From contig JAKARV010000009.1 of NCBI GenBank assembly GCA_021819205.1, positions 2,880 to 66,879 of the forward strand: 64,000 bases of DNA. Reading direction: 5' to 3'. The translations under genes and the position numbers were made by a program. Positions 2,340 through 37,590 of this stretch are shown here, one piece after another. The notes under the pieces were generated by a model. The model was not told where the DNA came from and made no database searches. It saw nothing but the letters and a program-made list of their open reading frames with translations. This stretch comes from Actinomycetes bacterium. Its GTDB lineage: Bacteria; Actinomycetota; Acidimicrobiia; Acidimicrobiales; Acidimicrobiaceae. Position 1 is the first letter of the stretch; each line of letters starts with the position of its first letter.

Positions 2340-2555
2340 GCGACTTCGCCGCCACCGGAGATAGAGGTTCTCGCAGATGCTCGCCGATGCCTTTCGATGC
2401 AGCCGTGCACGCGTTGGATCGGCGGCGCTGCCTGCGCGCTGTCGAGTGCTTGGCGCGGCGGTTTGGATATGAGCAGCTGAAAATTTACCGACAGGTCGTG
2501 TTGACGGCGCGGTGCGATCATGCCAATCGCCAGGGAGTGGCGTTTGTCCAATCGA

Positions 2556-6293: not shown

Positions 6294-6435
6294 TTATGCG
6301 GCCGCGGATGATGCTGGCCCGATGGAGCCCTCTCGGCTGTACTCCACCCTGCGCTGGAGTTTTGCCGGCCACGCCAGGTTTGTTCTGACGATTTTTCATC
6401 ACGCTAGCCGCCAAACATGCTAAAGTCAGATCCAT

Positions 6436-6449
6436 TGTTTGTCTAAACA
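6436..6449. promoter_or_regulatory. Candidate TetR operator (TGTTT-gtct-AAACA) in the divergent TetR/SBP intergenic region
   Basis: Imperfect 14-bp palindrome with 5-bp arms, read directly from the sequence between the divergent genes 5556-6293 and 6510-8333. Confidence 0.25.
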
Positions 6450-6509
6450 CTCAGTCAGTGTCGGTTTGCGCAGGTCAAGCGCAATAGTGACCAGGAAGGA
6501 ATCACAGAG

Positions 6510-8333: not shown

Positions 8334-8423
8334 ACGCGCTTTTCGACGTGAAGGGCTCGGGGGCGGCAGGCTTTTGAGCAGCTCAACACCTTGTGGTGTT
8401 CGCGCTATCGCTTCGGGAGACGG

Positions 8424-22106: not shown

Positions 22107-22301
22107 TCAAGAGAGTGTGAGCGCTCGTGCCGGGCAGGCCTTCGTCGCCCGCTTGGCCTCCCTAAGGGTGTTTTCGTCGATCTCTTCGCTAATGATTATC
22201 GGGTAGCCCCAGCGGTCGAGCGTGATGCAGGAGGGCGCCATCAGTGCGCAGATTCCGTGCCCATTGCAGGCGATGCGATCCAAAGCGAGCCGGGTGTGCA
22301 T
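22107..22301 (-). CDS. Small single-cluster ferredoxin (CxxHxxC...CP type)
   Basis: 64 aa. CNGHGIC ... ACP pattern, as in actinobacterial 3Fe-4S/4Fe-4S ferredoxins. Starts 2 nt after the NuoF-like stop. Confidence 0.75.
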   Translation of the reverse strand: MHTRLALDRIACNGHGICALMAPSCITLDRWGYPIIISEEIDENTLREAKRATKACPARALTLS

Positions 22302-22302
22302 C

Positions 22303-23550
22303 TTAAACCTTGAAGACCGGCTGGGGGCCCTTGGCAGAGCACTTGCGGTTTCGATGCAGATGAACCTCCTCGCTGAACGTGGCGATCGCAGAGTTGAGCA
22401 TCGCGGTGGCCGCGTCGGGATGGCTGCACCCTCCTCTGCCGGCGATCTCGCGGATGAGGCGGATCACCGACCGTTCGGCCCTCCGTGATGGTCGTGTTCC
22501 CAACGCAGCTGGCAGCTTTGCCTGGAGCGCTGGCAGTCCAAACTGGCATGGACCGCACTGCTTTGCGCTTTGGGAGGCGAGGAAGCCAAACAGCCGCTGC
22601 GCTTCGTTTAGGCCGCAGGCGCCCTCAGGGACGACTCCGACCAGGCCGCAGCCGAGGGATCCATTCTCCTCGGCGCCCAGAAGCTCGAAGGGAGGCACGA
22701 ACCGGCCACCGTACCCTCCTATCAAATAGGCAAGTGGTTCCGCGGTTGCGCCACCGGCGGCCTCCAGCACCTCCATTGTCGGAGAGGGGTGGAGCAGCTC
22801 GACTACGGTCCCGGGCGAAAAGACTCCCCCCGAGAGCGTGAGCAGGCGGGAGCCGGGGGAGTTTGGGGTACCAAGAGATCTGAAGGCGGCGCTTCCGATG
22901 CGGGCGATGCTCGCCATCTGGGCAAGGGTCTCCACGTTGAAGACGACGGTCGGCGCTCCATTCACGCCGGTGTCGATCGGTCGCGAGAAGGTAGGGAGGG
23001 CGATTTGGTTGTTGAGGAAGTTTACCGCCGCGCTGGACTCGCCGGAGACGTAGCCATTTGGGGCGATTGCAATTTCGATGCTGACATCCTGTTGGCGAAG
23101 CTGAGAGAGTGCCCGCTGGAGCGAGGCGTGGACGTGCCGGTAGTCGTGAATGTAAAAATAGATTTTGCTCGCCGAGACGGCCTTTGCCGCAAGCCACGCC
23201 CCCTCGATGATTAGAAAAGGGCGATGGAGCATGAGCGCTTTGTCTTTGAGGCTGGCCGGCTCGCTCTCCGACCCGTTGGCCACCACTACCGCGTGTCGAC
23301 CTCGAGCCCTTGCGGCCGCGATCTTGAGGTGGGCGGGGAAGCCCGCCCCGCCTCGTCCGGTAAGGCCGGCGCTACGGACACGGTCTACAATCTCGTCCGC
23401 GGAAAGATCGGGGAGGAGTCCATAGAGCTCTCGGTGCGCCTGGAGATCCCAAAGGTAGGCTTGGCCGTTCCTTAGGAGCGATAGCTCGGACACCTCTGAA
23501 CTCGAGTCGGCTCCGGCGAAGGTGGCTGCCTGTCCAACGCCGGTGCTCAT
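22303..23550 (-). CDS. NuoF-like NADH/FMN-binding iron-sulfur protein (complex-I 51-kDa-subunit-like, stand-alone)
   Basis: GLTGRGGAGFPAHLKI and VVANGSESEPASLKDKALM match the NuoF FMN/NADH site; the C-terminal Cys motif is KQCGPC...GGCSHP. The Met at 23550 overlaps the upstream stop (ATGA). The 572-aa ORF in the track is an N-terminal over-extension. Confidence 0.75.
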   Translation of the reverse strand: MSTGVGQAATFAGADSSSEVSELSLLRNGQAYLWDLQAHRELYGLLPDLSADEIVDRVRSAGLTGRGGAGFPAHLKIAAARARGRHAVVVANGSESEPASLKDKALMLHRPFLIIEGAWLAAKAVSASKIYFYIHDYRHVHASLQRALSQLRQQDVSIEIAIAPNGYVSGESSAAVNFLNNQIALPTFSRPIDTGVNGAPTVVFNVETLAQMASIARIGSAAFRSLGTPNSPGSRLLTLSGGVFSPGTVVELLHPSPTMEVLEAAGGATAEPLAYLIGGYGGRFVPPFELLGAEENGSLGCGLVGVVPEGACGLNEAQRLFGFLASQSAKQCGPCQFGLPALQAKLPAALGTRPSRRAERSVIRLIREIAGRGGCSHPDAATAMLNSAIATFSEEVHLHRNRKCSAKGPQPVFKV

Positions 23551-24206
23551 GCGCTTCTTACCTCCCGAACCCTGGAGGCAAAAAGGCCACACAAAACCGT
23601 CTCCACCAAGATGACCAGGTAGAGCGGTAGCAGCTCTGGCGTGTCGGTGCCGGCGGTCACGCCATGGATCCAGGCCGCGAGGAACATGACTATAGCCAAC
23701 CGGTGAATCGAGAGCCAGCTCGGCCCCACCAACAAGCCAGAGAGGGCCGCCGAACCTCCAACGGCGAGTCCTAGGTAGAGAGCGGCAGTTCCAATAGCGA
23801 CAGCGAGCGGACGGTAGGTGGCCGAGAACGGGACGATGATCCCGATAAACCCCACTCCGGCGTACTTGTCGATCGCCAGGGTGAGTAGGTGGACCACCAG
23901 GAACGAGCCGCCGATCGCCGCGAGGATGCGGTGCAGCCGCAAGAGCGTTAGCTGGCTTATCCCGGCCCGGTAGAGCGGGATCTTGCCTCTGGCCGCAAAG
24001 CCCAGGTTGGTGAGGACCCAAAGTATGAGCAGAGTGGCGATTCCAAAAATCCGCCCAAGTTCCCAGGGGAGGAACTTCAATGGCAATGCCCCGATCACCA
24101 TTCGCTCGAAAACGTAGCCGAAGGCCGCCGCCGTCACCAGTGCGGAGGCGGCTGCAACGGTGGCCGGCCTGGGCTCTCGTGCCGGCTGGCTCAGCTCGCT
24201 AGCCAC
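23547..24206 (-). CDS. Stand-alone ferric-reductase-domain (FRD / MsrQ-YedZ-like) di-heme membrane protein
   Basis: 219 aa, about 6 TM helices. Two intramembrane His pairs have NOX/FRE-type spacing: HRILAAIGGSFLVVH (H-x13-H) and HRLAIVMFLAAWIH (H-x12-H). Confidence 0.65.
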   Translation of the reverse strand: MASELSQPAREPRPATVAAASALVTAAAFGYVFERMVIGALPLKFLPWELGRIFGIATLLILWVLTNLGFAARGKIPLYRAGISQLTLLRLHRILAAIGGSFLVVHLLTLAIDKYAGVGFIGIIVPFSATYRPLAVAIGTAALYLGLAVGGSAALSGLLVGPSWLSIHRLAIVMFLAAWIHGVTAGTDTPELLPLYLVILVETVLCGLFASRVREVRSA

Positions 24207-25117
24207 CTCAACTGGTCCTGCATCTGTGTGGAAAAGCGATAGCTCCCATCATCGAACACCCAGAAGGCCGCGACATTCTCCTCCTCGGCAATCTCGTTGA
24301 TCCGGTTTTGGCCGCTTAGAAACAAGGTCTTGGAGAGTACTTCGGCGCGTGCGGGGTCAGAATGTAGCACGGTCACCGAGAGAAGGCCTTCGCCTCCCGG
24401 AAGGCCGGTCGCCGGGTCGATGAGGTGGTGCACCGGGACTCCGCCTCGGCGCCAGCTGCGAAGTCGGATTGACGAAGTGGCGCAGCCGGCATCGTGGACC
24501 GCGACAATTGCAATGTGGCCGGTCCCGTTTGGATTTTCAATTCCGATCAGCCACTCGTCGGCGTCGGCTGGAGCTCCCTTTGCGTAGCAGTCTCCTCCGG
24601 CTTCGATCAGGAACGCCGACGAGTAGGTTCCGAGAGTTGTCGCTGCATCCCGTACCGCAAGCCCCTTCCCGATTCCGCCGAGATCGATTGGGTGGGATCC
24701 GACTTTAACGGACAAACTCCTGGCGTCGAACTCCGGGCTCCAAGTTGGAAGTGGATTGCGGCGATCGGGCACCATTGCGCCCTCCTCGTCGCCGACCTGG
24801 GAGAAGGTTTCAGCGTAGCCCAACCGGCACAGGTCTTCGAAAACCCGCGGATCAAAGATCTTCTGAGTCTCCAGATAACCTTCGTAAGCCTCTTTGATCG
24901 CGGTGAAGGTCAGTCGTGATACCCGATGCATGTGGGAAGGATCGTGGTTGATCTCCGAAAGTTCGCTGCTCTCTTTGAAGCGCGAGAGTGTGGCCTCGTA
25001 GCGCCTGAAGACCGATACCACTTCTGCTCCTTGCCACTCCTCGGTATCGCTTTCACTTGCATCTGCAATCAGGATGCTGATGTTCGAAGCCATCGCCTTG
25101 GTCTGGATCTTGATCAT
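24191..25117 (-). CDS. apbE: FAD:protein FMN transferase (ApbE family), no recognisable signal peptide or lipobox
   Basis: 308 aa. ApbE motifs DLGGIGKG, EAGGD and ATSSIRLR...VHHLIDPATGLP. The N-terminus MIKIQTKAMASNISILIADASESD is not signal-like. Confidence 0.85.
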   Translation of the reverse strand: MIKIQTKAMASNISILIADASESDTEEWQGAEVVSVFRRYEATLSRFKESSELSEINHDPSHMHRVSRLTFTAIKEAYEGYLETQKIFDPRVFEDLCRLGYAETFSQVGDEEGAMVPDRRNPLPTWSPEFDARSLSVKVGSHPIDLGGIGKGLAVRDAATTLGTYSSAFLIEAGGDCYAKGAPADADEWLIGIENPNGTGHIAIVAVHDAGCATSSIRLRSWRRGGVPVHHLIDPATGLPGGEGLLSVTVLHSDPARAEVLSKTLFLSGQNRINEIAEEENVAAFWVFDDGSYRFSTQMQDQLRWLAS

Positions 25118-25121
25118 CGGC

Positions 25122-25457
25122 CTACCCGAGTCCAGAAGCGCCGGTCGTGGCGTGGGCCGCGGGAGTGTTCACTGGGGGAAGGTTCGGCAGCGAGAAGTTG
25201 AGAGCGGATTTGCCTGCTTGGGGCGAGAGACTTTGGATGCTTGAGATTGCTCGAAGGTCCTGTTCAAGAAGGCGTTGGAGCTGGGAGACCTGAAGTTGCT
25301 GGGAGATGAGTGCGGCCTTGCGAATAGCAGCTGCGCGCTCCCGCTGAACCTGTGCCATCTGGGACTTTACCGGCCCCGCGGCAACTGCCACGCTTGCCGC
25401 AGCTGTTGCCGCAGCAAGCGTGGTGGGAACCCAGCGGATTAACGTTCCCAGTGACAT
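25122..25457 (-). CDS. Membrane-anchored coiled-coil protein with C-terminal ATTGASG tail (hypothetical)
   Basis: 111 aa from the Met at 25457, with AGGGAGG 7 nt upstream. One N-terminal hydrophobic helix, a Q/L-rich heptad-like segment, and the ending ...PAAHATTGASGLG. Confidence 0.5.
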   Translation of the reverse strand: MSLGTLIRWVPTTLAAATAAASVAVAAGPVKSQMAQVQRERAAAIRKAALISQQLQVSQLQRLLEQDLRAISSIQSLSPQAGKSALNFSLPNLPPVNTPAAHATTGASGLG

Positions 25458-25482
25458 AAATCTGCCTCCCTTCGCAGGGCCT

Positions 25483-26064
25483 TTAGTTGTCGCTGCTGGA
25501 GGATGAGCCGCCGTTGTCGCCGCTGCCCTGCTGCTGCCCATCTCCTGAGTGAGAGTCGGTGCTGGAAGTGCCGGAGGCGCCGGTGGTAGCGCTCACCGGC
25601 GGGGTAATGGTGTTGCTCGGTGTCGCCGCCAGGGCCTGCGCCTCCTGCTCCAACTGCGTCTGCTCTGCTGCAAGCTTCTGCGCCTCAAGCTGCAGGTTCG
25701 CCTCCTGCTGCTGGACGGTGGTGTTAGTGCTGGCGATCTTGGCGTTCTCCTGCGCCATCACCCCCTTCAGGCGCCCCTCCGCCGCGGCGATCTCGGCGTG
25801 GAGGCGTGCCTCTTGGGATTTGAGCGACCCTACGGACCCCGTTGCCGGAGTTGCCGGAGTTGCCGGGGTTGCCGGGGTTGCCGGGGTTGCCGGGGTTGCC
25901 GGAGTTGCCGGAGTTGCCGGAGTTGCCGGGGTAACCGCGATCTGGGAAGGTGGAGTTGTTGTGGCGGAGGTACTTGCCGTTACGTTCACTGCAGCCGCGG
26001 TTCCACCCGCCACCACGCCGCCAGCAGCCAGAAGTTTGATCAGCCACTGTATCTTTCCGGTCAT
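25483..26064 (-). CDS. Membrane-anchored/secreted protein: (PAT)x10 linker + coiled coil + ATTGASG-containing Ser/Gly-rich tail (hypothetical)
   Basis: 193 aa with AAGGAGAGG upstream of the ATG. N-terminal hydrophobic helix, 10 PAT repeats, Q/E/A-rich coiled coil, then ...PPVSATTGASGTSSTD.... Confidence 0.55.
   Translation of the reverse strand: MTGKIQWLIKLLAAGGVVAGGTAAAVNVTASTSATTTPPSQIAVTPATPATPATPATPATPATPATPATPATPATGSVGSLKSQEARLHAEIAAAEGRLKGVMAQENAKIASTNTTVQQQEANLQLEAQKLAAEQTQLEQEAQALAATPSNTITPPVSATTGASGTSSTDSHSGDGQQQGSGDNGGSSSSSDN
25841..25930. repeat. Tandem 9-bp repeat (gttgccggr) x10 encoding (Pro-Ala-Thr)10
   Basis: Ten consecutive in-frame units counted directly, with only the third-position a/g varying. 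Confidence 0.95.
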
Positions 26065-26319: not shown

Positions 26320-26607
26320 ATGACATGGATGTCACTAGATGTAAGCTTGACCCCCGATCCGAGCGCGTTGCCTGGCGGATCGATTTTGCAGCAGCTGGCA
26401 GACGGCATCGGAGGTTGGGCGCTGATTCTTGCGTTGGTCGGGCTGGTAGTTGGCGCGGCAACCTGGGCGCTGGGCGCTCACTCGCAGAACTACCAGCAGT
26501 CGTATCTGGGACGCAGGGCGGTACTGGTCTCGGTTGCGGCGGCGCTAATCATCGGGGCTGCTCCAGCGATCATAAACTTCTTTTTTCATCTGGGCCTTGG
26601 CGCGTAA
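26320..26607 (+). CDS. Small two-TM pilin-like membrane protein (resembles actinobacterial DUF6112 / VirB2-analog proteins)
   Basis: 95 aa with AAGGAGG SD. Pattern PDPSALPGG...(TM)...WALGAHSQN...GRRAVLVS...(TM)...INFFF matches my recollection of the DUF6112 family found at the head of actinobacterial T4SS clusters. Confidence 0.6.
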   Translation: MTWMSLDVSLTPDPSALPGGSILQQLADGIGGWALILALVGLVVGAATWALGAHSQNYQQSYLGRRAVLVSVAAALIIGAAPAIINFFFHLGLGA

Positions 26608-26610
26608 CGG

Positions 26611-27669
26611 GTGTTGAACAGCCTCTTCGGGATACCCCTGGCGGCCCTTGGGCGGGCACTCGTCTCGGTGGCCGCTGCTGCGGCGGGATCGTTTTTGACC
26701 CGCACAACCGTGGAGCTTGCCTCCTGGTTATTGAGGGAGATCACCCAAATTCTGCTAGCCCCGGGAGGACTGAACCTTGGTGCTGGATTTTTTGCACGCG
26801 CCTACTTGGGTTCCGCCAAGCTTGCGGCAGAACTCGCCCTTCCCGCGCTGTTGCTGGCGGTGGTGGCCACCATTCGCAAAGGATCACTCGCGGGCCTAAC
26901 CGAAATCCTGCTCAGGGTCCCGGTCGCGTTCCTCGTGATCGGTATTGCACCTGCGGTCGTGGAGCTGTTGGCGCGAGTCGTGGACGCCGCGGCAGGTACC
27001 GGCCTGGTGGGCATCTCTGCGCTCCCGCGGTTAGCTGACCTACTCCAGGCTGGAATCGGCAACCCGATGCTGGGCCCGGTCGTTGGAACGTTTCTAGCGG
27101 CCATCGCCCTGGCCGGGGCGGTGCTGATCTACGTCGAGTTGATCGGGAGGGACGCTGCACTTTACCTATGCCTGTCGATGCTACCCCTCACTGCTATCGG
27201 GATAATTTGGCCAGCCCTGAGGCACTGGTTTTCGAAGACGCTCAAGCTGATCGCCGGTCTGCTGTTGACCAAACTCGTGCTTGCGGCGGCGGTGGGACTC
27301 GGTGCGGGCGCTATTGCCGGCGCTGGGGGTGGTACCGCCGCCGAAGCCGCCGCCGGAGCTGCCCTGATCATCGCCGGGGCGTTTGCGCCGCCGGTTGTCT
27401 TTAGGGTTGTCGGCTTTTCGGAGCTTGCTCTCGTCGAGCTCTCCGGCTCGATCGCCAAGGTAGCTGCCTCCCGTACCGCGGGCGGCGCGCAGCGGGCGAT
27501 CTCGGGAGCGATGGCACTCCCCGAATGGATGGAGGTCTCCCGCCTCTCCTCGCAGCCGTCGCGGCTTCCCTGGTACTCGGGGTATCCGCCCCCATCTGAG
27601 CTGGCAGAGCGGGCGAAGAGCGATCCTTGGATGCACGAGTTTCTTTACCGGGGGCGGAAGCGGGGATGA
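26611..27669 (+). CDS. Polytopic membrane protein, VirB6/TrbL-like
   Basis: 352 aa with at least 6 hydrophobic helices and a Gly/Ala-rich segment. The GTG start lies 3 nt after the upstream stop. Its position in the cluster matches TrbL/VirB6. Confidence 0.5.
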   Translation: MLNSLFGIPLAALGRALVSVAAAAAGSFLTRTTVELASWLLREITQILLAPGGLNLGAGFFARAYLGSAKLAAELALPALLLAVVATIRKGSLAGLTEILLRVPVAFLVIGIAPAVVELLARVVDAAAGTGLVGISALPRLADLLQAGIGNPMLGPVVGTFLAAIALAGAVLIYVELIGRDAALYLCLSMLPLTAIGIIWPALRHWFSKTLKLIAGLLLTKLVLAAAVGLGAGAIAGAGGGTAAEAAAGAALIIAGAFAPPVVFRVVGFSELALVELSGSIAKVAASRTAGGAQRAISGAMALPEWMEVSRLSSQPSRLPWYSGYPPPSELAERAKSDPWMHEFLYRGRKRG

Positions 27670-28859
27670 GCGAACGCATCCTGTTGGGAACGCCCGCCCA
27701 GGGAACCAGGATCCTCGGCATCCCCCTTGCCCGGGCATCCGCGGGCTCGGCTGCCGTTGCCAGCGCTCTCGCCGGTTGGGCGGGGTACGGTACCGCTGGC
27801 CTCCTTTTTGCCCTTCTCGTTATCGGGGCCGGTGCACTTGGGCTTGCCTACTTGCACCGATCAACGATCTATCCGGGGGCGTGGTTGCGACTGGTGGCCA
27901 AACGGCATCGCGGTGGCTTTGTCGATGACGGTGGGTACCTGGCTACGGTGGGCACGGCACGAACGGTACTGGCCTTTCGGCTCGAGCTCGCCACGCCGAG
28001 ACTATTCGGCCGAATTGAAGGGGAGGAGGGGGTGGACTGGGTCAGGCTGTTAACCGTGACCGCCAAACTTGCCGCTGGATTCCGTGGCGGCGCCAGGGTG
28101 GTGCTGTCGACCAGCATCTTGCCCTCGCTCCTCCGGTCGTCTTCTCCACCACTGCTCGAACCGGTGTACGAGGTAGTGTCGCGGCTAACCCTCTCACCGC
28201 GCTCAAAGCTGAACCGAACGGAACTAGAAAGGCTGGGTACCTGTGCGCAGCAGCTCTCCGCGCTCTCTTCCGAACTCGCGACGGTGCGCCTCGTGCGCCT
28301 CGAAGGTGGTCGCGCGCTTCTCGAGAGCTCGGTTGCTTCTCTTATTACCGGGGTGAATTCGGAAATTGTCGAGAGGGAGGACCGCCTCGAACTTGCGGGG
28401 TCGGTGGCATCGGTTCTAATGATCAAGGGGTGGGGGGAGGCTTCGCCACCACCTGGCCTATTGGCTCCGTTGTTCGCAGCCACTCCCCCGGCACGGTTGA
28501 TGGGGGTAGTGCTGGATCCGCTCGAGGCGAGAAGGGCGTTCCGCACCGTTGGGAGAGCTCGTGCCGAGCAGGAGGCGGACTCCCGGCTCTTGAGGCAGCA
28601 CGGCTACCTGGAGCGGCTGGCGGAGAGTGCTCGCACAACCGCCGCGGCGCTGCAGGAGGAGCGGCTTCTCGCCGGGTATGCCCTTGCCCGGTTTCAGATC
28701 GTCTCGGTAGTGCTTGCCCCCAACCGGGCCGGTCTGCGCAGAGAGCTTCGGGAGATGATCGAACTGGGGCTCCGCTGCAACGTCGAGTTCGCCGTGGCGC
28801 TCGGGCACCAGCGGGAGTGGTTCGAGCTGGCAACCGCGGGGGTTGAGGGATGGAGCTAG
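27666..28859 (+). CDS. TM-hairpin protein with a VirB4 N-terminal-like domain (SCO6880-family-like; VirB3/VirB4N analog)
   Basis: 397 aa from the Met at 27666 (ATGA overlap). The N-terminal double TM is followed by about 330 soluble residues with no Walker motifs. It sits immediately upstream of the ATPase. Confidence 0.5.
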   Translation: MSERILLGTPAQGTRILGIPLARASAGSAAVASALAGWAGYGTAGLLFALLVIGAGALGLAYLHRSTIYPGAWLRLVAKRHRGGFVDDGGYLATVGTARTVLAFRLELATPRLFGRIEGEEGVDWVRLLTVTAKLAAGFRGGARVVLSTSILPSLLRSSSPPLLEPVYEVVSRLTLSPRSKLNRTELERLGTCAQQLSALSSELATVRLVRLEGGRALLESSVASLITGVNSEIVEREDRLELAGSVASVLMIKGWGEASPPPGLLAPLFAATPPARLMGVVLDPLEARRAFRTVGRARAEQEADSRLLRQHGYLERLAESARTTAAALQEERLLAGYALARFQIVSVVLAPNRAGLRRELREMIELGLRCNVEFAVALGHQREWFELATAGVEGWS

Positions 28860-30022
28860 CGTGGCAGGCTACAACGGACGCGCTCGCCAGGATACCGGTT
28901 CCGACGGCGAGCCCGCTGACGGGAGGAGAACGCAACCCGCTCGGGTTGCTCGCCACCGGCGGGACTTTCTGCTTCGACCCATTCGACCTCTACGCCCGGG
29001 GCCAGATTACCAACCCAAACCTTCTCGTTCTTGGCGATGTCGGACGGGGCAAAAGCACCATGGTGAAGACGTTTCTTCATCGCGGCCTTGGTGAAGGCCA
29101 GTCGCTGGCTATCGTCGATCCGAAGGGAGAGTACCGGGAGCTTGGAAAAGTTTTGGGGGCGACTTGGCTCGCACCGGGCGATACTGGCGGGATCGATCCG
29201 TTTGCCGGATATGGTTCGAGCCCGTCGGAGGTGGCAACTGCGGTATTGGCGTTTATATCGTTGGCGCTTGGGCGCGATCCCACCGATGTCGAAAAGGCGG
29301 TCGCGGCCGCGATAGCACGCCATCTCGCCGCCGAGCGCCGACCCCCGAGTATTCGGCACCTCATCCACCTCTGTGGCCGTCCCAGCCTGGTAGGGGCGAT
29401 GGTGCCAACCATTCTCCGAGGGGAGGCGGAACGGTTGATGGCCGCCATGGGGATGGACCTCGAGCGGGTGGTAACGGGAGACCTCGCCGGTCTGTTCGCC
29501 GTCGATGGCAGGACGAAGCCGCTACCGGAGCGTGTGGTGATCGATCTCGGGGCAGTGGGGAGCGGGGAGCTTGGAGCGCTCGCTACTGCCGCAATCTTGC
29601 GGAGCCGGATCGCTGATCTGGCCCTAAGGCGCATTGGTGCCGGTTATGTGGTTCTGGACGAGGCATGGTCGGTGCTGCGCGACGGGAAAAACGCCGCCTC
29701 GATACGTTCTTTGCTCAAGCTTTCGCGAGCTTACGGCGCTTCCGTGATCGCGGTGACCCATCGGCTCTCGGATTTGAGTTCTGGCGCAAGGGAACTGGTC
29801 CGAGAGTGCGGAAGCGTCTCCCTCTTCTCTCAAGGGATCGGGGAGGCAGCGGAACTCCAGGAGTGGTTCGGATTTGATCCGCTACGTTGCAGCCTGGCCT
29901 CCGATCTTCCGCGGGGGAGGGCGATCTGGCTCTTGGGGCGGCGCGAATTCCTGGTAGACCACGTGGTGAAGCCGTCCGAAGCCGGCATGGTCGATACCGA
30001 CTCGCGGATGGTTGCGCGATGA
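28850..30022 (+). CDS. VirB4/TraC-type secretion ATPase (ATPase domain only)
   Basis: 390 aa. Walker A GDVGRGKST, Walker B YVVLDEAW, then VTHRLSDL. It overlaps the upstream gene by 10 nt. Confidence 0.75.
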   Translation: MELAWQATTDALARIPVPTASPLTGGERNPLGLLATGGTFCFDPFDLYARGQITNPNLLVLGDVGRGKSTMVKTFLHRGLGEGQSLAIVDPKGEYRELGKVLGATWLAPGDTGGIDPFAGYGSSPSEVATAVLAFISLALGRDPTDVEKAVAAAIARHLAAERRPPSIRHLIHLCGRPSLVGAMVPTILRGEAERLMAAMGMDLERVVTGDLAGLFAVDGRTKPLPERVVIDLGAVGSGELGALATAAILRSRIADLALRRIGAGYVVLDEAWSVLRDGKNAASIRSLLKLSRAYGASVIAVTHRLSDLSSGARELVRECGSVSLFSQGIGEAAELQEWFGFDPLRCSLASDLPRGRAIWLLGRREFLVDHVVKPSEAGMVDTDSRMVAR

Positions 30023-31239
30023 TTGCGCTCCTCTTGCTGCTGGTTCTGGTGGCGGCGGGGGTAACGGTCGGCCGGGACGGCAACTTCCGACACTCTCCGA
30101 ACTCTCGCCGGCTCTCCCCCGGCGATGGCCGGCGTCTTCACCGGTGGCGTTTCGGGTCGCCGACGCATTTTTCCCACCCATCGTGCGATCTGAGAATCGC
30201 CGCCGGGAGGCGGGAGATCCGCTTGGACTCCGAGTCCTCTCTCCTGGTGGTTGGACCCACCCGATCGGGAAAGACCCGGTCGGTGGTAGCCCCGAACTTG
30301 ACGCGGTGGAACGGCCCGCTCCTCTATGCGTCGGTCAAAGACGAACTGCTGAACGAGGAGGTGTTATCGGCGCGGTCGGCGTTTGGAGCGGTGTACGTGC
30401 TTGGGCCTTCCCCGCGCGCTAGCGCCTCGTGGTGGCCGGCTCTCGAAGCCAACTCGGCTGCCGCAGCCCAAAGGATGGCGAACATCGTAATCTCGGTTCA
30501 CGGCGGGAACGGAATCGATGGGACCGAGACCCGGTTCTGGTACGGGCTGGCAGAGCCGGTCCTGGCCGGCCTGCTCCGGGCGGCCAACCTCGCGGGGATT
30601 CCCGAGTCCGAAGTCGCTTCGTCGCCGGCTCTCGCCGAGCGTCTGCTGGAGAAGGCCGGAGAAGGGCAGTTGGCGTCGGAGGTAGCGGGCGCAGGTGGGC
30701 TTGACCAGAGGACCCGAAGTTCGGTGCTGCTCACAGTGAAGCAGCTGCTCGACCCGCTCTCCCGGATCGAGCAGCGCGGGCCGGCGGTAGCGCTCTCGGA
30801 TCTGCTGCCGGGGTCGGTCCTGCTGGTAGGCTCGATCGGCCAGCAACAGGAGGCGGCGATCTACCTCTCTACCTTCATCTCCGCCTACCTCCGGACCGTT
30901 CTTGAGCCCGGAGCCGGGGCGGCGCGGCTCCTTCTCCTCGATGAGGCGGCGCACCTCTCGCGGGTGCCGGAGTTGGCGGCGGCCGCCTCAGTCGGAATCG
31001 GCCTCGGGATCAGGATGGTCACGGTGGTCCAAGATCTCTCGCAGTTGGCAGCGCGTTACCGGGATGGGTGGCGCTCCATCGTCAGCAACCATACCGCGCA
31101 GCTTTTCCTGGGAACCGGAGGCGACGGGCTGACGCGCGACTACCTGACTCAAGCCTTTGGCGGAGATCCGCCGAACGGCAAAATCCTGCTTGAGAGGAGG
31201 AGACGGCCGTCGGTGATTTGGGAGCTACGCAAAGCTTAG
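30019..31239 (+). CDS. Type IV coupling protein (VirD4/TraG-like, TraM-recognition-domain type)
   Basis: 406 aa from the Met at 30019 (ATGA overlap). N-terminal TM MIALLLLLVLVAAGV, Walker A GPTRSGKT, Walker B LLLLDEAAH. Confidence 0.75.
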   Translation: MIALLLLLVLVAAGVTVGRDGNFRHSPNSRRLSPGDGRRLHRWRFGSPTHFSHPSCDLRIAAGRREIRLDSESSLLVVGPTRSGKTRSVVAPNLTRWNGPLLYASVKDELLNEEVLSARSAFGAVYVLGPSPRASASWWPALEANSAAAAQRMANIVISVHGGNGIDGTETRFWYGLAEPVLAGLLRAANLAGIPESEVASSPALAERLLEKAGEGQLASEVAGAGGLDQRTRSSVLLTVKQLLDPLSRIEQRGPAVALSDLLPGSVLLVGSIGQQQEAAIYLSTFISAYLRTVLEPGAGAARLLLLDEAAHLSRVPELAAAASVGIGLGIRMVTVVQDLSQLAARYRDGWRSIVSNHTAQLFLGTGGDGLTRDYLTQAFGGDPPNGKILLERRRRPSVIWELRKA

Positions 31240-31252
31240 GTTCGGGTGCTCC

Positions 31253-31648
31253 GTGCCGATGTCATTCTCCATGATCGAACAAGATCCAGGTATCGTCGAG
31301 GCGAACCTCCTTTTGGCACAGTTGGAGGAGGCGCTCACCGAGATGGAGAGGGTGGTCTCCGAAGACCAGTACGCCCAACTCGCGAGGGTTTCGGCGCAGG
31401 TTGAGGCGGTCGTGGCCGGGTTGAGCCGGCTGAAGATCGGAGCCGAAGGTAGCGATTCGGCAGTCGAGCAGCTCCGCGAGCGGCATCACCACCTCGCCAC
31501 CAGGGCAAGCGGCTTGGCCGCCGCTTGCTTCTGGCGCTCCCTGCTGGTATCGAACCTGCTCCGCGACCTAGGACTGGATTTGGGCATCTACGGAAGGGAT
31601 GGGCTGATCGAGCCCCAAGGCGTGCACTCTGTAAGCGAGAACGCATGA
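31253..31648 (+). CDS. FlgN-like flagellar export chaperone (putative)
   Basis: 131-aa helical, acidic protein. The call rests on its position directly upstream of flgK (ATGA overlap), as in flgN-flgK-flgL operons; no strong motif was seen. Confidence 0.4.
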   Translation: MPMSFSMIEQDPGIVEANLLLAQLEEALTEMERVVSEDQYAQLARVSAQVEAVVAGLSRLKIGAEGSDSAVEQLRERHHHLATRASGLAAACFWRSLLVSNLLRDLGLDLGIYGRDGLIEPQGVHSVSENA

Positions 31649-33027
31649 GCGGTGGCTCCCTGTACATAGCGCTCTCCGGGCTAGAGGCTCAGCAGGCAGC
31701 GCTGCAGGTCGTCAGCGAAAATGTCTCCAACGCCAACACGCCGGGGTACTTGGCCGAGTCGACCAATCTGGCTAATCTCCAGGTGGCGGGGAGCCCAATC
31801 GGAAGCGGCGTTACCGTTGCGGGAATAGTGCAGTCGAGCAGCACCTTCGCCAAGCAAATGGAGCTCCAGGCTTCCGCTTCGAACTCCTATGCCTCCCAGC
31901 TCCAGTCGTTGCTGTCGAGCGCGCAGAACTTTTTCATGGAGCCGTCGTCGTCTGGGCTATCTGAACAGATGAGCACGATGTGGAACTCATTTTCTTCGGT
32001 GGCGAACGACCCTACCCAGACGGGTCCGCGGATGCAGGTGGTCGCGAACGCCACCGATGTGGCGAACGCCATCAATCAGGCCGCAACCGGTTTGACAAGC
32101 CTCTTCAACCAGACGGCCAGCGCCATCGGCAGCCAGCTCCAGACCGTTAACCAGCAGCTATCGGACGTTGCCACGCTCAACCAGCAGATTGCCGCGCAGT
32201 CGGGGAGCCAAGGAGGGGCGAACTCGCTGATAGATCAGCGAAACCAGCTTTTGAACCAGCTCACTTCGGAGATTGGAGTCACGGTGTCGCCTGCCGCAGC
32301 CGGACAAGTAAACGTGCTTTCCGGAGGCATCGCTTTGGTCCAGGGTTCCCAAGCGGAGCAGCTCACCTACACTGCTGGAAGCGGATCCCCGCCGAGCACG
32401 CCGAACACTGCATCGGTATCGCTCGTCTCGAGTGGGACTGTGCTCCCGGTTGCTTCGGGGCAGGTGGGGGCGGAGCTGACCGTCTTGAACTCCAACCTGC
32501 CGACCTACGGCAACTACCTCAACCAGCTCGCCACGAGCTTGGCAAGCCAAGTAAACCAGCAGCTGGCAGCGGGAGAGAGCACGACCACTTCGGGTACCGG
32601 CTCCCAGGCGGGGATTCCGCTCTTCGTTGGGGCTGGGGGATCGCCAATCAACGCGTCCAACATCGAGGTGAACTCGCAGATAGCGAGCGACCCGATGCTG
32701 ATTGCGGCTTCCGGGAACCCATACGCCGCTGCCGATGGCAGCAATGCCCAGGCAGTTGCCAATCTCCAGACCCAGCCCACCGGACCCAACGCCCTCTGGT
32801 CCCAGATCAGCGGATCCGTGGGAGTGGACGTCGCCAACTCGCAAACCCTTGCCACCAGCGCCAACTCGGTCTACCAGCAGGCGTACGGGCAAGAGCAGGC
32901 GGTCAGCGGCGTTAACGTAAACGCCCAGCTGGTCAACATGGTGAACTACCAGAACGCTTACCAGGCCGCCGCCAAGTTGATCGGTACCATCTCCCAGACC
33001 CTCCAGTCCCTGATCCAGTCGGTATAG
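31645..33027 (+). CDS. flgK: Flagellar hook-associated protein 1 (FlgK)
   Basis: N-terminus MSGGSLYIALSGLEAQQAALQVVSENVSNANTPGY and C-terminus VNMVNYQNAYQAAAKLI are canonical FlgK termini. Confidence 0.9.
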   Translation: MSGGSLYIALSGLEAQQAALQVVSENVSNANTPGYLAESTNLANLQVAGSPIGSGVTVAGIVQSSSTFAKQMELQASASNSYASQLQSLLSSAQNFFMEPSSSGLSEQMSTMWNSFSSVANDPTQTGPRMQVVANATDVANAINQAATGLTSLFNQTASAIGSQLQTVNQQLSDVATLNQQIAAQSGSQGGANSLIDQRNQLLNQLTSEIGVTVSPAAAGQVNVLSGGIALVQGSQAEQLTYTAGSGSPPSTPNTASVSLVSSGTVLPVASGQVGAELTVLNSNLPTYGNYLNQLATSLASQVNQQLAAGESTTTSGTGSQAGIPLFVGAGGSPINASNIEVNSQIASDPMLIAASGNPYAAADGSNAQAVANLQTQPTGPNALWSQISGSVGVDVANSQTLATSANSVYQQAYGQEQAVSGVNVNAQLVNMVNYQNAYQAAAKLIGTISQTLQSLIQSV

Positions 33028-33037
33028 GAGGACCGAA

Positions 33038-33943
33038 ATGCTGCAGATCCCGTCCGAGCTAGCGCTATCTTCGGCGATGGCAAACTCGTTGACCAACTAT
33101 CAGAACCAGCTCAATCAGCTGGAGATCACGCTCGCCCAAGGGCAGAACATCAGCCAGCCGTCGGACAACCCCAGTGGCGTGGTCGCCCTCGGAAACGCCA
33201 CCGCATCCCTCAGCGCCTACCAGCAGTTCGCCACTAACATCAAGACCGGCGAGACCGTAGCATCGCTGGCCAACTCCTCGCTCAACCAGGCCGTCAACTT
33301 GGTACAGCAGATCCGGTCGGCGATGATCCAGGTGGGTTCGCCAGGAGTTACCGCCTCCTCGGCAGCCGGGATCGCGTCGCAGATCTCGGGTCTGGAACAG
33401 TCGTTGCTCGGCGTCGCCAACACGACCTATCTTGGGAACGCGATCTTTGCCGGAACCAGCGGCGCGGCGGTAGCCTACTCCCAGCCAGGCGGCAGCGGCA
33501 CTGCGGTCAGTTACAATGGCAACTCGACTGCGACCGAGGTGGCGGCGGCGCCGGCGCTCTCGATCGCGACGTCGGTTACCGATCCGTTTGGAGTGACTTC
33601 AGCTTCGGGAGGGGTCTTTGCCGCCATCAACCAAACGCTTTCGGACATCTCGAGCGGAAACTACTCCGCGGTTACCAGCAGCGACTTGAACTCGGTCACG
33701 ACGGCGCTCGGCAACCTTACCGACCAGGCCGCCAAGGCTGGGGTCAACTACAGCCAGTTCCAGTTGATGTCGAACCAGGTCTCGGCGGCGGTCACCAGTA
33801 TCACCGGCCAGGTGGCATCGATCCAGAATCTTGACTATGCCTCACTTACCACCCAGTACCAGCAGCAGTTGAACAACTACCAGGTAGCGCTGTTTGCCGC
33901 CTCCAAGGTCGCACAGCCGTCGCTGGCGAGTTATTTGCCCTAG
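33038..33943 (+). CDS. flgL: Flagellar hook-associated protein 3 (FlgL)
   Basis: 301 aa. Flagellin-like N-terminus (...LAQGQNISQPSDNPSGV...) and C-terminal helical region; follows flgK. Confidence 0.85.
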   Translation: MLQIPSELALSSAMANSLTNYQNQLNQLEITLAQGQNISQPSDNPSGVVALGNATASLSAYQQFATNIKTGETVASLANSSLNQAVNLVQQIRSAMIQVGSPGVTASSAAGIASQISGLEQSLLGVANTTYLGNAIFAGTSGAAVAYSQPGGSGTAVSYNGNSTATEVAAAPALSIATSVTDPFGVTSASGGVFAAINQTLSDISSGNYSAVTSSDLNSVTTALGNLTDQAAKAGVNYSQFQLMSNQVSAAVTSITGQVASIQNLDYASLTTQYQQQLNNYQVALFAASKVAQPSLASYLP

Positions 33944-33981
33944 ATCCAACCGTACGCAAAACGATGCAAGGAGAGTATGCG

Positions 33982-34437
33982 ATGAAGGTTCAAGAGGAGA
34001 GCGCGGCAACCGCCCTCTCGCTTCCACTGGCGTTCCCGATCGGCCTGCCGGGATTCGAGACGTACCACAGCTTCCACCTCGTGGGTCTCGGGCCGGCGTA
34101 CGGCCCTTACCTGGGTTTGCGCTGCGCAATCGACGAAGGGCCTACTTTCGTTGTGGTTCAGCCGAGCGAGATCGGGATCACGCTTGAACTAGAGATCGAC
34201 GACTTCCACCAAGCACTGCTCGGAATCAAGGATGCCTCCGAAGTTCTGGTAATGCTCATCGCGACCTTGCGCGAGGAGAAAGCCTTCCCTACGGTCAATA
34301 CCCAGGCTCCGCTGGTGATCAACGTCACCAACTGGAAAGTTGCCCAAGTCTCCCAGTCCAACGCCGAGTACCGGTTGGACCAGGAGGCAGAGGTAGCGTT
34401 CTACGACGCGGAACGGGCTATTGCTGCCCTTCGGTAG
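33982..34437 (+). CDS. fliW: Flagellar assembly factor FliW (CsrA antagonist)
   Basis: LAFPIGLPGFE...FVVVQP...INVTNWKVAQV pattern. AAGGAG lies 8 nt upstream of the ATG at 33982. Confidence 0.85.
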   Translation: MKVQEESAATALSLPLAFPIGLPGFETYHSFHLVGLGPAYGPYLGLRCAIDEGPTFVVVQPSEIGITLELEIDDFHQALLGIKDASEVLVMLIATLREEKAFPTVNTQAPLVINVTNWKVAQVSQSNAEYRLDQEAEVAFYDAERAIAALR

Positions 34438-34645
34438 TTGTCTTCCGCAGGGCCTGCTCGGACGACTCCGCTGCCATCCGGTTCGCGGCCTGCAAGGCTT
34501 CGAAAATCTCCTGCCGATGGACGTCCACGTTTCGTGGTGCCTCGATGCCGATCCGCACCTGATCCCGGTGTACATCGAGCACGGTAATCACGATGTCGGT
34601 CCCGATCACGATGCTCTGGCTTGCCTTCCGGGTGAGTACTAACAC
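34418..34645 (-). CDS. csrA: Carbon storage / translational regulator CsrA
   Basis: 75 aa. MLVLTRKASQSIVIG.DIVITVLDV..DQVRIGIEAP..V.VHRQEI is a near-consensus CsrA. GTG start with GGGAGG upstream. Confidence 0.9.
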   Translation of the reverse strand: MLVLTRKASQSIVIGTDIVITVLDVHRDQVRIGIEAPRNVDVHRQEIFEALQAANRMAAESSEQALRKTTTEGQQ

Positions 34646-34953
34646 TGCGCCTCCCTGCGCCCGTAGGCGATCGTCCCCTCACTGAATATCGCGGATCCCA
34701 CAAAGACAATTTCATCGCCCACTCAAGGTGAGAGCAACATACATTATCTTGCCGACCCATTAGCAATAGTACCACAGGTGGTGGGGGTGCTACCGGAGTT
34801 TCGCCATCTGTTGAAGCAAAGTCGCAGCTCCCAAGGGAGACGGACGGTGCCGGGCGACCATGGACCGGTGGCTGGCAACCCTGGAGACATTTCGGTAAAG
34901 CGAACGCGGCTGGGTGTCGAAAGAGAACCATCGCAAGACTTAAGGAGGAGTCG

Positions 34954-37155: not shown

Positions 37156-37589
37156 CCATGGCCCAGGAGCAGTACTGCACCTTCAAGCTCGACAGCCTGG
37201 TGCTTGGCCTTTCGGTCGTGCACGTGCAGGAGGTGATCCGGCACCAGCAGATCACCCGAGTCCCGCTGTCAAAGCAGATCGTGAGCGGTTTGATGAACCT
37301 TCGAGGGCAGATCGTTTCCGCTCTTGATCTGCGCCGGCGTTTCGGCATCGAAGAGTCGTTTCCGCAGGAGCCGATGAGCCTGATCGTGGTGGTCCAAGGG
37401 GAGTCGATTGCGCTGCTGGTCGACGAGATCGGTGACGTGATCACCGCTGAAGCCGCCGACTTCGAACCGGTTCCGGAGACTCTGGGTCCGCCCGCAAGCG
37501 AGCTAATCCGCTCGGTTCTTCGTACCGCCAACGGGCTGCTTCTCCTTCTCGACCTGGATGCCGCCGTCCAGTTCGCGATGGCCACCTGA
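37152..37589 (+). CDS. cheW: Chemotaxis coupling protein CheW
   Basis: 145 aa, single CheW-like domain (YCTFKLDSLVLGLSVVHVQEV). ATGA overlap with cheA. Confidence 0.9.
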   Translation: MTMAQEQYCTFKLDSLVLGLSVVHVQEVIRHQQITRVPLSKQIVSGLMNLRGQIVSALDLRRRFGIEESFPQEPMSLIVVVQGESIALLVDEIGDVITAEAADFEPVPETLGPPASELIRSVLRTANGLLLLLDLDAAVQFAMAT

Positions 37590-37590
37590 G

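Follow-up and report, generated by a model that had tools for sequence, protein, structure and literature searches.

The window, that is, the whole stretch of 64,000 nucleotides of an Actinomycetes bacterium that we analyzed (contig JAKARV010000009.1), harbors a tightly packed run of six minus-strand genes at positions 22107-26064. They encode, in this order, two proteins that we call A and B, an ApbE, an FRD membrane protein, a NuoF-like protein and a ferredoxin:

25483..26064, minus strand: protein A gene, 193 aa; ORF and public gene call; AAGGAG ribosome-binding site
25122..25457, minus strand: protein B gene, 111 aa; ORF preceded at 7 nt by a GGGAGG site; also 111 aa in the public call
24191..25117, minus strand: ApbE gene, 308 aa; Pfam PF02424, E 4e-45
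23547..24206, minus strand: FRD protein gene, 219 aa, GTG start; weak match to Pfam PF01794
22303..23550, minus strand: NuoF-like gene, 415 aa; Pfam Complex1_51K (E 4e-35) and NADH_4Fe-4S (E 1e-10)
22107..22301, minus strand: ferredoxin gene, 64 aa; Pfam Fer4_15, E 4e-11

The packing of these six ORFs had been pointed out in a first-pass annotation of this DNA, and all six agree with the gene calls of public assemblies of the same organism; the Pfam matches likewise bear out the ApbE, NuoF-like and ferredoxin families it had named. The junctions range from a 16-nt overlap (ApbE/FRD) to a 25-nt gap (A/B, containing GGGAGG), with a 4-nt gap between B and ApbE, an ATGA overlap between the FRD and NuoF-like genes and a 1-nt gap before the ferredoxin gene, and ribosome-binding sites precede A and B. 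For protein B, the most probable start is the ATG at 25457 rather than an in-frame ATG further upstream (25541, giving a 139-aa ORF), because the GGGAGG site belongs to the former. Outside the operon, one flank matches DAO and the opposite flank T4SS-like families, and a peptide ABC-transporter ATPase is also among the adjacent genes in the precomputed Pfam list.

The gene set is syntenic outside its source genome. Among 88 related loci, 49 share the order ApbE>FRD>NuoF>Fd, mostly in Actinomycetota; 80 of the loci come from a scan of GTDB species representatives, and about 60 of these belong to Actinomycetota judging by their record titles, with the cultured Paractinoplanes durhamensis and Actinotalea fermentans among the sources. 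All six genes are also found together in the related locus L008, whose NuoF-like protein is 76% identical, and in L009, L011 and L013 (43-48%), each time within unrelated flanks. This supports a conserved operon and excludes a chance cluster, since the synteny spans dozens of species.

The FRD protein scores 19.6 bits against Ferric_reduct (PF01794), below the Pfam gathering score of 28, and its homologues do carry this domain. Its helices hold two pairs of histidines:

23889..23933, minus strand: His92...His106, H-x13-H, in the third helix (translation and homologue alignment)
23664..23705, minus strand: His168...His181, H-x12-H, in the fifth helix, followed by a family-wide HGVTAGTD loop

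All four histidines are invariant across 18-26 homologues, and the AF2 model shows six transmembrane helices (pLDDT 82.8). The best-probability Foldseek matches are the SpNOX structures 8qq7/8qt6 (probability 0.97-0.98), the transmembrane domain of NOX5 (5o0t, TM-score 0.60/0.63) and 8u86. The 219-aa protein is thus predicted to be a NOX-type FRD with two b hemes, as the histidine spacing had led the first-pass annotation to propose; its subfamily comprises 1204 clusters at 50% identity (E <= 1e-30). The TAGTD loop was also considered as an ApbE site and rejected: its residues are in the wrong order, and it is found family-wide, even in loci without ApbE.

The flavin and NADH site motifs noted earlier in the NuoF-like protein, GRGGAGFP (residues 65-72) and SESEPASLKD (residues 94-103), are present and kept in the family. 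Like NuoF/Nqo1, the protein combines the Complex1_51K fold and the GRGGxxFP and ExEPxSxKD motifs with a C-terminal Fe-S domain, and it aligns with T. thermophilus Nqo1 at E 4e-40. Unlike them, it stays far under the NuoF equivalog cut-off (TIGR01959, 178 bits versus 559) and has no NuoE or NuoG partner, and the CGEET of NuoF/Nqo1 reads SGESS. The SCGKC of Nqo1 pairs with SAKQC, so that the first cysteine of the N3 cluster is replaced by alanine. In the family, C-x18-26-C-x2-C-x30-50-C is retained in 52 of 57 members and CxxCxxC in none of the 57, and a conserved cysteine about 22 residues upstream may replace the missing ligand. Judged from these alignments, the protein would have an FMN/NAD(P)H site and a single Fe-S cluster whose first cysteine ligand is shifted. 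The ferredoxin reads CNGHGIC...CP and hence is of the CxxHxxC...CP type that had been described; Cxx?xxC...CP is found in 58 of 59 family members, the variable residue being His in 33, and the protein probably carries a single cluster, [3Fe-4S] or [4Fe-4S].

The ApbE aligns with TM1553 of T. maritima and Ftp of T. pallidum and retains the DLGGIxKG, GGD, ATS and HHxIDPxTG blocks. Its N-terminus shows no signal peptide, lipobox or hydrophobic stretch, and the ORF cannot be extended upstream; a signal peptide was likewise not found in the ApbE of any related locus. The lack of an export signal, remarked on before for this one protein, therefore holds for all its relatives, and the enzyme is predicted to be cytoplasmic. 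FMN_bind is absent from the families seen at least twice among 144 flanking proteins of 36 loci.

The first-pass annotation had treated the ApbE as an orphan. This view does not survive a closer look at the two coiled-coil proteins A and B, whose C-terminal tails bear a conserved ApbE-type motif, which makes both proteins likely ApbE substrates:

25840..25929, minus strand: (PAT)x10 tandem repeat, protein A residues 46-75, a flexible spacer
25573..25593, minus strand: tag A, SATTGAS, protein A residues 158-164; Ser164, which lies 29 residues before the C-terminus, is the predicted FMN acceptor
25134..25154, minus strand: tag B, HATTGAS, protein B residues 102-108; predicted FMN acceptor Ser108

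Protein A begins with a Lys-flanked, Ala/Gly-rich export or anchor segment, continues with the PAT-repeat linker (10 units in the window, 3 in two conspecific NCBI MAGs) and one long helix (residues 79-146), and ends in a disordered, Ser/Gly/Asp-rich tail that bears the tag and closes with DN; in a single-sequence AF2 model the helix has a pLDDT >90 and its flanks are disordered. Protein B has an N-terminal hydrophobic segment, a helical region, a Pro-rich linker and its tag three residues from the C-terminus. Neither has a family match in Pfam, and protein A has none in NCBIfam either. A-type proteins occupy the same slot in many loci, and many have acidic or His-rich tails; B has only two homologues detectable by sequence, and in most related loci a B-type protein can be recognized from its position and tag. 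Lys and Arg average 3.3 in the 12 residues before the hydrophobic segment versus 0.58 after it (before exceeds after in 59 of 71), which predicts an N-in/C-out orientation; no twin-arginine motif was found in the window's own A and B. There is a conflict of topology here, in that the ApbE is predicted to be cytoplasmic in every locus and the tags are predicted to lie outside.

Both tags share the seven-residue register of the ApbE motif D-x-x-[ST]-G-A-[ST], and the core [ST]GA[ST] of the family consensus, P-x-[TV]-H-[AT]-T-T-G-A-S-G, is that of the ApbE motif. At position -6, canonically Asp, tag A has Ser and tag B has His; among 71 tags this position is His in 59, Gln in 8 and Asp in 4, with Pro at -9 in 64, Gly at +1 in 53 and Ser as acceptor in 67. 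For the strict motif [HDQ]xxT[GR]A[ST], the expression was composed after inspection of the data, with only its core [ST]GA[ST] fixed beforehand. Of the 415 same-strand ORFs that occupy the slot adjacent to ApbE/FRD, 68 have it within their last 50 aa, whereas it turns up in 2 of the 5268 ORFs from other parts of these loci (Fisher p = 5e-77); outside the window, ORFs were called by a longest-ORF heuristic, and MAGs make up most of the loci. If each tail is shuffled, 0.29 of the 71 would be expected to carry the motif. The tag adjoins the FRD gene in three phyla, and in Chloroflexota and Bacillota loci without NuoF, tagged pairs sit between FRD and ApbE. The seven residues of the motif suffice for ApbE and work best at a protein terminus, a D-to-A change has a minor effect only, the ApbEs studied favor Thr as acceptor, and cytosolic ApbEs are known (PMC12052999).

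Building on the gene order, domain families, histidine conservation, fold, synteny, and tag conservation and enrichment computed here, we infer the cofactor content, the direction of electron flow, flavinylation and its site, and the acceptor as follows. We think it reasonably probable that the operon encodes a split NOX-type transmembrane conduit which moves NAD(P)H electrons outward and in which ApbE flavinylates the tails of A and B. On the cytoplasmic side, a non-covalent FMN of the NuoF-like protein would accept the electrons of NAD(P)H and pass them to the protein's Fe-S cluster, and the ferredoxin would shuttle them to the inner heme of the FRD protein, whose two bis-His b hemes would relay them through the membrane. 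Proteins A and B, possibly paired through their long helices, would be the acceptors on the outer side. ApbE would join FMN to the last Ser of SATTGAS in A and of HATTGAS in B, probably in the cytoplasm, given that it lacks an export signal, and before the C-terminal tag exits the cell. The tethered flavins would then hand electrons from the outer heme to an external acceptor, for which metal ions are suggested by the many A proteins with acidic or His-rich tails; O2 or a cell-envelope enzyme would be alternatives.

It is conceivable, though rather unlikely, that the conduit is real and the tails of A and B stay unflavinylated, the peptide being a docking, metal-binding or heme-contacting element at the outer face of the FRD protein, with ApbE serving the NuoF-like protein or another cytoplasmic client or making FMN by FAD hydrolysis. 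The predicted topology, with no signal peptide on ApbE in any locus and the tails outside, would fit this, as would the conservation of His at -6 and Pro at -9 beyond the known needs of ApbE and the FAD pyrophosphatase activity of some ApbE homologues (PMC4767422). B-like tails (PVVTGGS) also occur beside FRD-NuoF-Fd with no ApbE nearby; such tails, ending in TGGS or SGGS, lack an adjacent ApbE in L094, L095 and L028, and some A proteins are entirely without tag, which is why the tail may dock on the FRD protein in addition to, or instead of, being flavinylated. However, the tag agrees with the ApbE motif in its exact seven-residue register and its T-G-A-S core, it co-localizes with ApbE in three phyla and two gene orders, no conserved [ST]GA[ST] was found in the other operon proteins, and FMN_bind is missing from the recurrent flanking families.

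Even if the tails are flavinylated, electrons could run inward, from external or cell-wall donors through tails and hemes to the ferredoxin, which would deliver them to the NuoF-like protein or to another acceptor in the cytoplasm. The sequence itself is compatible with either direction, and reversal is possible in principle for such systems (Méheust et al., PMC8238504), but we regard it as very improbable, as the characterized FRD-family systems, NOX and MsrQ with Fre, draw on cytosolic NAD(P)H (PMC12525009), and NAD+ reduction via b hemes and flavins would, on general thermodynamic grounds, be uphill for most external donors. We give still less credence to the genes being part of a characterized complex (Rnf, Nqr, complex I, MsrPQ or Listeria-type EET) or a chance juxtaposition, the latter being excluded by the synteny described above. 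The NuoF-like protein does match the NuoF and RnfC models weakly, but all NCBIfam scores lie far under the cut-offs (178 versus 559 for NuoF, 73 versus 246 bits for RnfC), the six proteins match no Rnf/Nqr membrane-subunit, NuoE/G, MsrP, Ndh2 or EetA/B family in Pfam or NCBIfam, and the adjacent genes match the DAO, T4SS-like and ABC-transporter families named at the outset.

With respect to the conduit from NADH to heme that had been read from this locus, the operon, the di-heme FRD protein and the NuoF-like motifs thus stand, whereas the orphan ApbE, the impossibility of placing the gene set and the novelty of its split design do not. The operon can be placed in the "MsrQ-like" group of flavinylation-associated gene clusters, an operational class that Méheust et al. 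2021 (PMC8238504) defined by bioinformatics alone as ApbE plus an FRD protein; a NuoF-like (PF10589) protein is counted in 31 of the clusters, and NAD(P)H was proposed as the cytosolic donor. Those clusters likewise place a PF01794-type membrane cytochrome beside apbE, mostly in Actinobacteria, but they usually hold a gene for an FMN-binding domain, instead of which the window operon has two domain-less tagged proteins. That survey retained ApbE and FMN_bind genes only if their products had a signal peptide or a site for lipidation, and the window's ApbE family has neither. An earlier split NOX-like system is MsrQ with the soluble reductase Fre (PMC12525009, as described there with its ref. 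26). In E. coli, too, an FRD-family membrane protein works with a separate soluble NAD(P)H-dependent reductase; MsrQ, however, has one heme and an FMN site, with Arg replacing a heme-ligating His of NOX (PMC12525009), whereas the window protein has all four His, lacks an MsrP partner and is paired with a donor of another protein family.

Eukaryotic NOX/DUOX and bacterial SpNOX share the six-helix FRD, the two bis-His b hemes with x13/x12 spacing and NAD(P)H as presumed donor, but the window FRD lacks their fused FAD/NADPH dehydrogenase domain. Electrons would be supplied to it by a NuoF-like FMN/Fe-S protein and a ferredoxin, both separate polypeptides, and its proposed outer acceptor is a tethered FMN and not O2 directly. 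In Listeria-type EET (Ndh2, EetA/B, PplA, FmnB), NADH electrons also reach ApbE-flavinylated, membrane-tethered extracellular proteins in a Gram-positive organism (PMC8238504). There, quinone and EetA/B take the place of the hemes, PplA has folded FMN_bind domains, and FmnB is described as flavinylating outside the cytosol (PMC9973259), unlike the predicted cytoplasmic ApbE of the window.

Flavinylation of a natural domain-less tail was not reported in the literature searched, and seven-residue flavin-tagged tails would, on the strength of the motif, be a kind of flavin-carrying protein not described there. The closest counterpart is the engineered "flavin-tag" (Tong et al. 2021, as related in PMC12052999), which has the same length, register and terminal position. 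It is man-made, whereas the tags of the window family would be natural, with His, Gln or Asp at -6, Ser as acceptor, and additional conserved residues P -9, T -4 and G +1.

The redox operon occupies 22107-26064 on the minus strand, and two public assemblies from this organism, GCA_027448105.1 and GCA_027408805.1, have identical gene calls there. The first-pass annotation had described six tightly packed ORFs with a set of heme, flavin and Fe-S motifs; this anatomy was right, and every quoted motif was found at the spacing claimed.

Genes of the redox operon in reading order
26064-25483, minus strand: A, small operon protein, 193 aa, tag SATTGAS with putative acceptor Ser164; then a 25-nt gap with GGGAGG
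25457-25122, minus strand: B, small operon protein, 111 aa, tag HATTGAS with putative acceptor Ser108; then a 4-nt gap
25117-24191, minus strand: ApbE, 308 aa; then a 16-nt overlap into the FRD gene
24206-23547, minus strand: FRD (ferric-reductase-domain) membrane protein, 219 aa; then an ATGA overlap
23550-22303, minus strand: NuoF-like protein, 415 aa; then a 1-nt gap
22301-22107, minus strand: ferredoxin, 64 aa; operon end

A scan for promoters and terminators gave no signal exceeding the shuffled expectation.

The ApbE protein matches PF02424 with 154.8 bits against a cut-off of 25.6 (E 4e-45), and the conserved FAD/Mg-site blocks DLGGIxKG, GGD, ATS and HHxIDPxTG could be aligned. In its fold and site blocks it is an ApbE/Ftp FAD:protein FMN transferase, and this is the activity predicted for it. 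The view of this enzyme as an orphan did not stand, since likely substrates are encoded in the operon itself: judging from their sequences, A and B are most likely the "missing substrate". A ends in ...PPVSATTGASG followed by a Ser/Gly/Asp tail, and B ends in ...PAAHATTGASGLG at its C-terminus. Both proteins contain TGAS as the core ([ST]-G-A-[ST]) of the tag, a C-terminal seven-residue putative flavinylation site whose register is that of the ApbE motif D-x-x-[ST]-G-A-[ST]. The canonical Asp at position -6 is absent, being Ser in A and His in B of the window, and across the loci of relatives this position is H in 59, Q in 8 and D in 4 of the 71 instances of T-[GR]-A-[ST]. Seven residues are enough for ApbE, terminal tags work best, and the effect of a D-to-A exchange is only minor (2025 review, PMC12052999).

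A and B proteins from several phyla gave no Pfam or NCBIfam family, just sub-threshold coiled-coil noise, and a homology search with B returned itself and one 68% relative and nothing else. Because the B family is invisible to sequence search in this way, its members were located by position and tag. All close relatives have the tagged pair, and in most of the distant loci it was identified by position. The family layout consists of two small ORFs beside ApbE/FRD (the "slot"), each bearing a hydrophobic segment at the N-terminus and P-x-[TV]-H-[AT]-T-T-G-A-S-G in the C-terminal part. In B-type proteins the acceptor Ser lies 0-4 residues from the C-terminus; A-type proteins continue beyond it for 8-38 residues, a stretch rich in Gly/Asp/Glu/His whose last two residues are DD or DN. 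The tag is doubled in some A proteins and missing from others. The strict pattern [HDQ]xxT[GR]A[ST] within the last 50 residues, written post hoc with the data in sight (only the core [ST]GA[ST] was predefined), occurred in 68 of 415 same-strand slot ORFs versus 2 of 5268 ORFs outside the slot in those loci (Fisher p = 5e-77), and shuffled tails would be expected to yield 0.29 of the 71 by chance.

By Pfam, the tags of A and B lie in none of the known flavinylated folds (FMN_bind, NqrB/RnfD, DUF2271, DUF3570, Flavodoxin_4, FMN_red), and FMN_bind (PF04205) was not among the families occurring at least twice in 144 flanking proteins from 36 loci. The searchable literature yielded nothing relevant on this tag sequence or on flavinylation of C-termini or coiled coils, and describes no such substrates. 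In an AF2 model, A is predicted to form one 68-residue helix with disorder on both sides, in the PAT-repeat linker and in the tail. The PAT repeat (window 25840-25929, minus strand) has 10 units in the window and in two ENA assemblies, but two NCBI MAGs of this species (loci L002 and L004, 6206-6724) have only 3; the difference of 63 nt reflects either a length polymorphism or an assembly collapse. Tagless A-type ORFs lie upstream of ApbE in nine loci (L053, L059, L060, L061, L063, L073, L079, L085 and L090). Their tails are long and rich in Asp/His/Glu, e.g., DDHDDDDHDEDHDDD, which suggests metal binding.

The topology of this pair poses a problem. ApbE has no hydrophobic N-terminal segment in any locus and no signal peptide, and in most loci it could be extended upstream by 0-25 residues at most, usually leaving no room for a signal segment. 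In the A/B family, the 12 residues preceding the hydrophobic segment contain 3.3 K+R versus 0.58 after it, and K+R is higher before than after in 59 of 71 tagged proteins. This fits the positive-inside rule, with A and B predicted to be N-in/C-out or else to carry a signal peptide that is cleaved. Hence the apparent conflict: a signal-less ApbE in all loci would have to modify tags that are predicted to be exported. Cytosolic ApbEs are known (PMC12052999), and our preferred reading is that FMN would be put on the tag in the cytoplasm, ahead of export; the tag sits at the extreme C-terminus, the last part to come out. Tat export was rejected as a way out of this conflict: twin-arginine n-regions occur in 28 of 40 B-type proteins of other lineages, but A and B of the window have no RR, and elsewhere the Arg-rich N-extensions may be spurious. 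Alternatively, the tail of A/B may dock on the FRD protein, in addition to or in place of being flavinylated; this would be in line with some loci in which B-like tails ending in TGGS occur without an adjacent ApbE.

The FRD protein scores 19.6 bits with Ferric_reduct (PF01794), below the Pfam cut-off of 28, while its homologues do carry PF01794. None of the four residues H92, H106, H168 and H181 varies in two alignments, one with 18 and one with 26 homologues (identity as low as ~26%), with spacings of x13 (H92/H106) and x12 (H168/H181). The AlphaFold2 model (pLDDT 82.8) has six TM helices, the third and fifth of which bear the His pairs. Foldseek searches with this model gave weak E-values; the high-probability matches were S. 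pneumoniae NOX 8qq7 and 8qt6 (prob 0.97-0.98) and the NOX5 TM domain 5o0t (TM-score 0.60/0.63), along with human NOX5, DUOX1 and STEAP1. Since all four His are kept, the protein is by sequence and model a NOX-type rather than an MsrQ-type FRD, with two hemes predicted to bind. MsrQ proper combines a single heme with an FMN site, and an Arg stands where NOX has a His ligand of the inner heme (PMC12525009). It differs, as a mono-heme protein with an MsrP partner, from the four-His protein of the window; no MsrP-type family was matched among the six operon proteins in Pfam and NCBIfam. NOX proper, in turn, carries a fused C-terminal FAD/NADPH dehydrogenase domain, whereas the protein of the window ends after helix 6.

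The loop HGVTAGTD of the FRD protein was considered as a flavinylation site and rejected, both because the order is A-G and not G-A and because the FRD subfamily conserves it throughout, even in loci that lack ApbE. An FRD sub-type with a beta-rich C-terminal extension of ~150 aa was seen in three loci (L012 5904-7004, L094 7916-9004, L095 7967-9004). Its B-like partner ends in PVV[TS][SG]GGS at the C-terminus, and L094 and L095 have NuoF and ferredoxin genes and no ApbE nearby.

On the donor side, the NuoF-like protein matches the Pfam families Complex1_51K (E 4e-35) and NADH_4Fe-4S (E 1e-10) and aligns over its whole length with T. thermophilus Nqo1 (E 4e-40). It reaches 177.7 bits with the NuoF model TIGR01959 (cut-off 558.65) and is likewise far under the RnfC cut-off of NCBIfam, and no nuo genes were seen adjoining the operon in the window. 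The protein retains the flavin-site loops GRGGAGFP and ESEPxSxKD, and the FMN-site motifs are conserved family-wide. CGEET of Nqo1, in contrast, is SGESS here, and the N3 motif SCGKC aligns to SAKQC, the first Cys being replaced by Ala. As CxxCxxC occurs in 0 of 57 family members and C-x18-26-C-x2-C-x30-50-C in 52 of 57, the family likely holds an Fe-S cluster with a shifted ligand. The ferredoxin belongs to Fer4_15 (E 3.6e-11) and has the cluster motif Cxx?xxC...CP, which is present in 58 of 59 relatives, the ? being His in 33. A non-Cys residue at this position is typical for [3Fe-4S] actinobacterial ferredoxins.

The class of this operon is not new, because Méheust et al. 2021 had defined "MsrQ-like" flavinylation-associated clusters; these are clusters in which a PF01794 gene accompanies apbE or a gene for an FMN-binding domain (PMC8238504). 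In the window, 16 nt are shared by the ApbE and FRD genes, and the FRD protein fits PF01794 in its His ligands and fold. The combination of ApbE, FRD and NuoF-like proteins was already noted in that 2021 paper, with 31 NuoF-like clusters, by bioinformatics only. "MsrQ-like" clusters typically, though not obligatorily, hold a PF04205 substrate gene, whereas A and B have no Pfam domain. The survey further filtered for a signal peptide or lipobox on ApbE or substrate; the ApbE of the window has no signal peptide, while A and B carry N-terminal segments that look export- or anchor-like. A split NOX-like arrangement has a precedent in MsrQ and the soluble reductase Fre (PMC12525009).

The whole six-gene set recurs in locus L008, whose NuoF-like protein is 76% identical, and in L009, L011 and L013 (43-48%), with unrelated flanks. 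A locus scan with a 9-sequence alignment, with a single genome for each GTDB species, turned up 199 relatives, and 80 loci were kept; going by record titles, these comprise ~60 Actinomycetota, 12 Chloroflexota, one Dormiibacterota, two Bacillota and five others. Two carriers are cultured, Paractinoplanes durhamensis NBRC 14914 and Actinotalea fermentans NBRC 105374. The order ApbE>FRD>NuoF>Fd holds in 49 of 88 non-redundant loci, and many of the remaining ones are truncated contigs. In Chloroflexota and Bacillota the order is FRD, two tagged proteins and ApbE, without NuoF or ferredoxin; tags persist here, e.g., ...VVTTTSASGKP and ...TVTGASGGGGGDTSSGGDN at the C-terminus. Searched against 1.84 billion representatives, the FRD subfamily profile gathered 1204 clusters (50% identity level) with E <= 1e-30.

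Next to the operon, only an OmpR-type response regulator paired with a HAMP-HisKA kinase recurs, in ~15 of 36 loci (15-17 of 144 flanking proteins; L012 2416-4550, L081 2952-5116, L090 3494-4765 and ~12 further loci). This recurrence suggests that expression may be regulated and signal-dependent; in the window, no such pair is adjacent to the operon. Locus L043 has the FRD-NuoF-Fd module twice on one contig, at 959-3022 and 5896-9161, ~3 kb apart. ApbE and tagged A/B are in view upstream of the second copy only, the upstream region of the first being cut by the locus end. In L005 and L006, high-GC Bacillota-like relatives without NuoF and ferredoxin, a DUF2231 membrane protein lies divergently upstream of A-B-ApbE-FRD (L005 4892-5416, L006 2649-3182) and a two-component system follows this set.

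The conduit idea of the first-pass annotation remains reasonable, and we would extend it outward. Electrons from NAD(P)H would enter the FMN and Fe-S cluster of the NuoF-like protein and pass from this cluster via the ferredoxin to the inner and then the outer b heme of the FRD protein; from there they would reach FMN tethered to B and A, and finally an external acceptor. This acceptor might be metal ions, to judge from the Asp/Glu/His-rich tails that many A proteins have. A and B would be exported or membrane-anchored helical proteins with a single redox element, the FMN on the seven-residue motif of a disordered tail, which the signal-less ApbE would load in the cytoplasm and which would be exported afterwards. 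Chloroflexota and Bacillota would possess versions of the conduit without NuoF. That all of this holds jointly, with A/B as the first natural flavin-tags, attachment in the cytoplasm before export and an outward conduit widespread in Actinomycetota, is a tentative proposal which we regard as possible and on balance somewhat doubtful.

Many bacteria wire redox chemistry beyond the cytoplasm via ApbE-dependent flavinylation, and in ~4% of surveyed genomes ApbE has no known substrate, according to the 2021 survey (PMC8238504). If our proposal is true, a natural substrate consisting of seven residues without a domain would constitute a new class of flavinylated proteins that is invisible to domain searches, and substrates could be assigned to substrate-less ApbE genes, at least those of this family. 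It also begs the question whether a protein can be flavinylated in the cytoplasm and then exported. The operon would make a large FRD family that is still uncharacterised (>1200 clusters at 50% identity) tractable to experiment, and cultured actinomycetes are among the carriers of this family. Possible roles include the reduction of metals, electron transfer to the outside of the cell or the production of reactive oxygen.

Divergent from the operon, between it and flagellar genes, lies a minimal T4SS-like gene set (26320-31239, plus strand) encoding a DUF6112/TrbC(VirB2)-like protein, a TrbL/VirB6-like protein, an unknown 410-aa protein, a VirB4-like AAA_10 ATPase and a VirD4/TraG coupling protein, with no relaxase in view. 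It also adjoins the operon in L008; as a component of the system it was rejected, since the linkage is confined to the closest relatives and absent from distant ones. At 31525-38685 (plus strand) follow FlgK, a flagellin-like protein, CheA and CheB, which are flagellar and chemotaxis genes; the species representative closest to this genome carries the label Actinomycetes.
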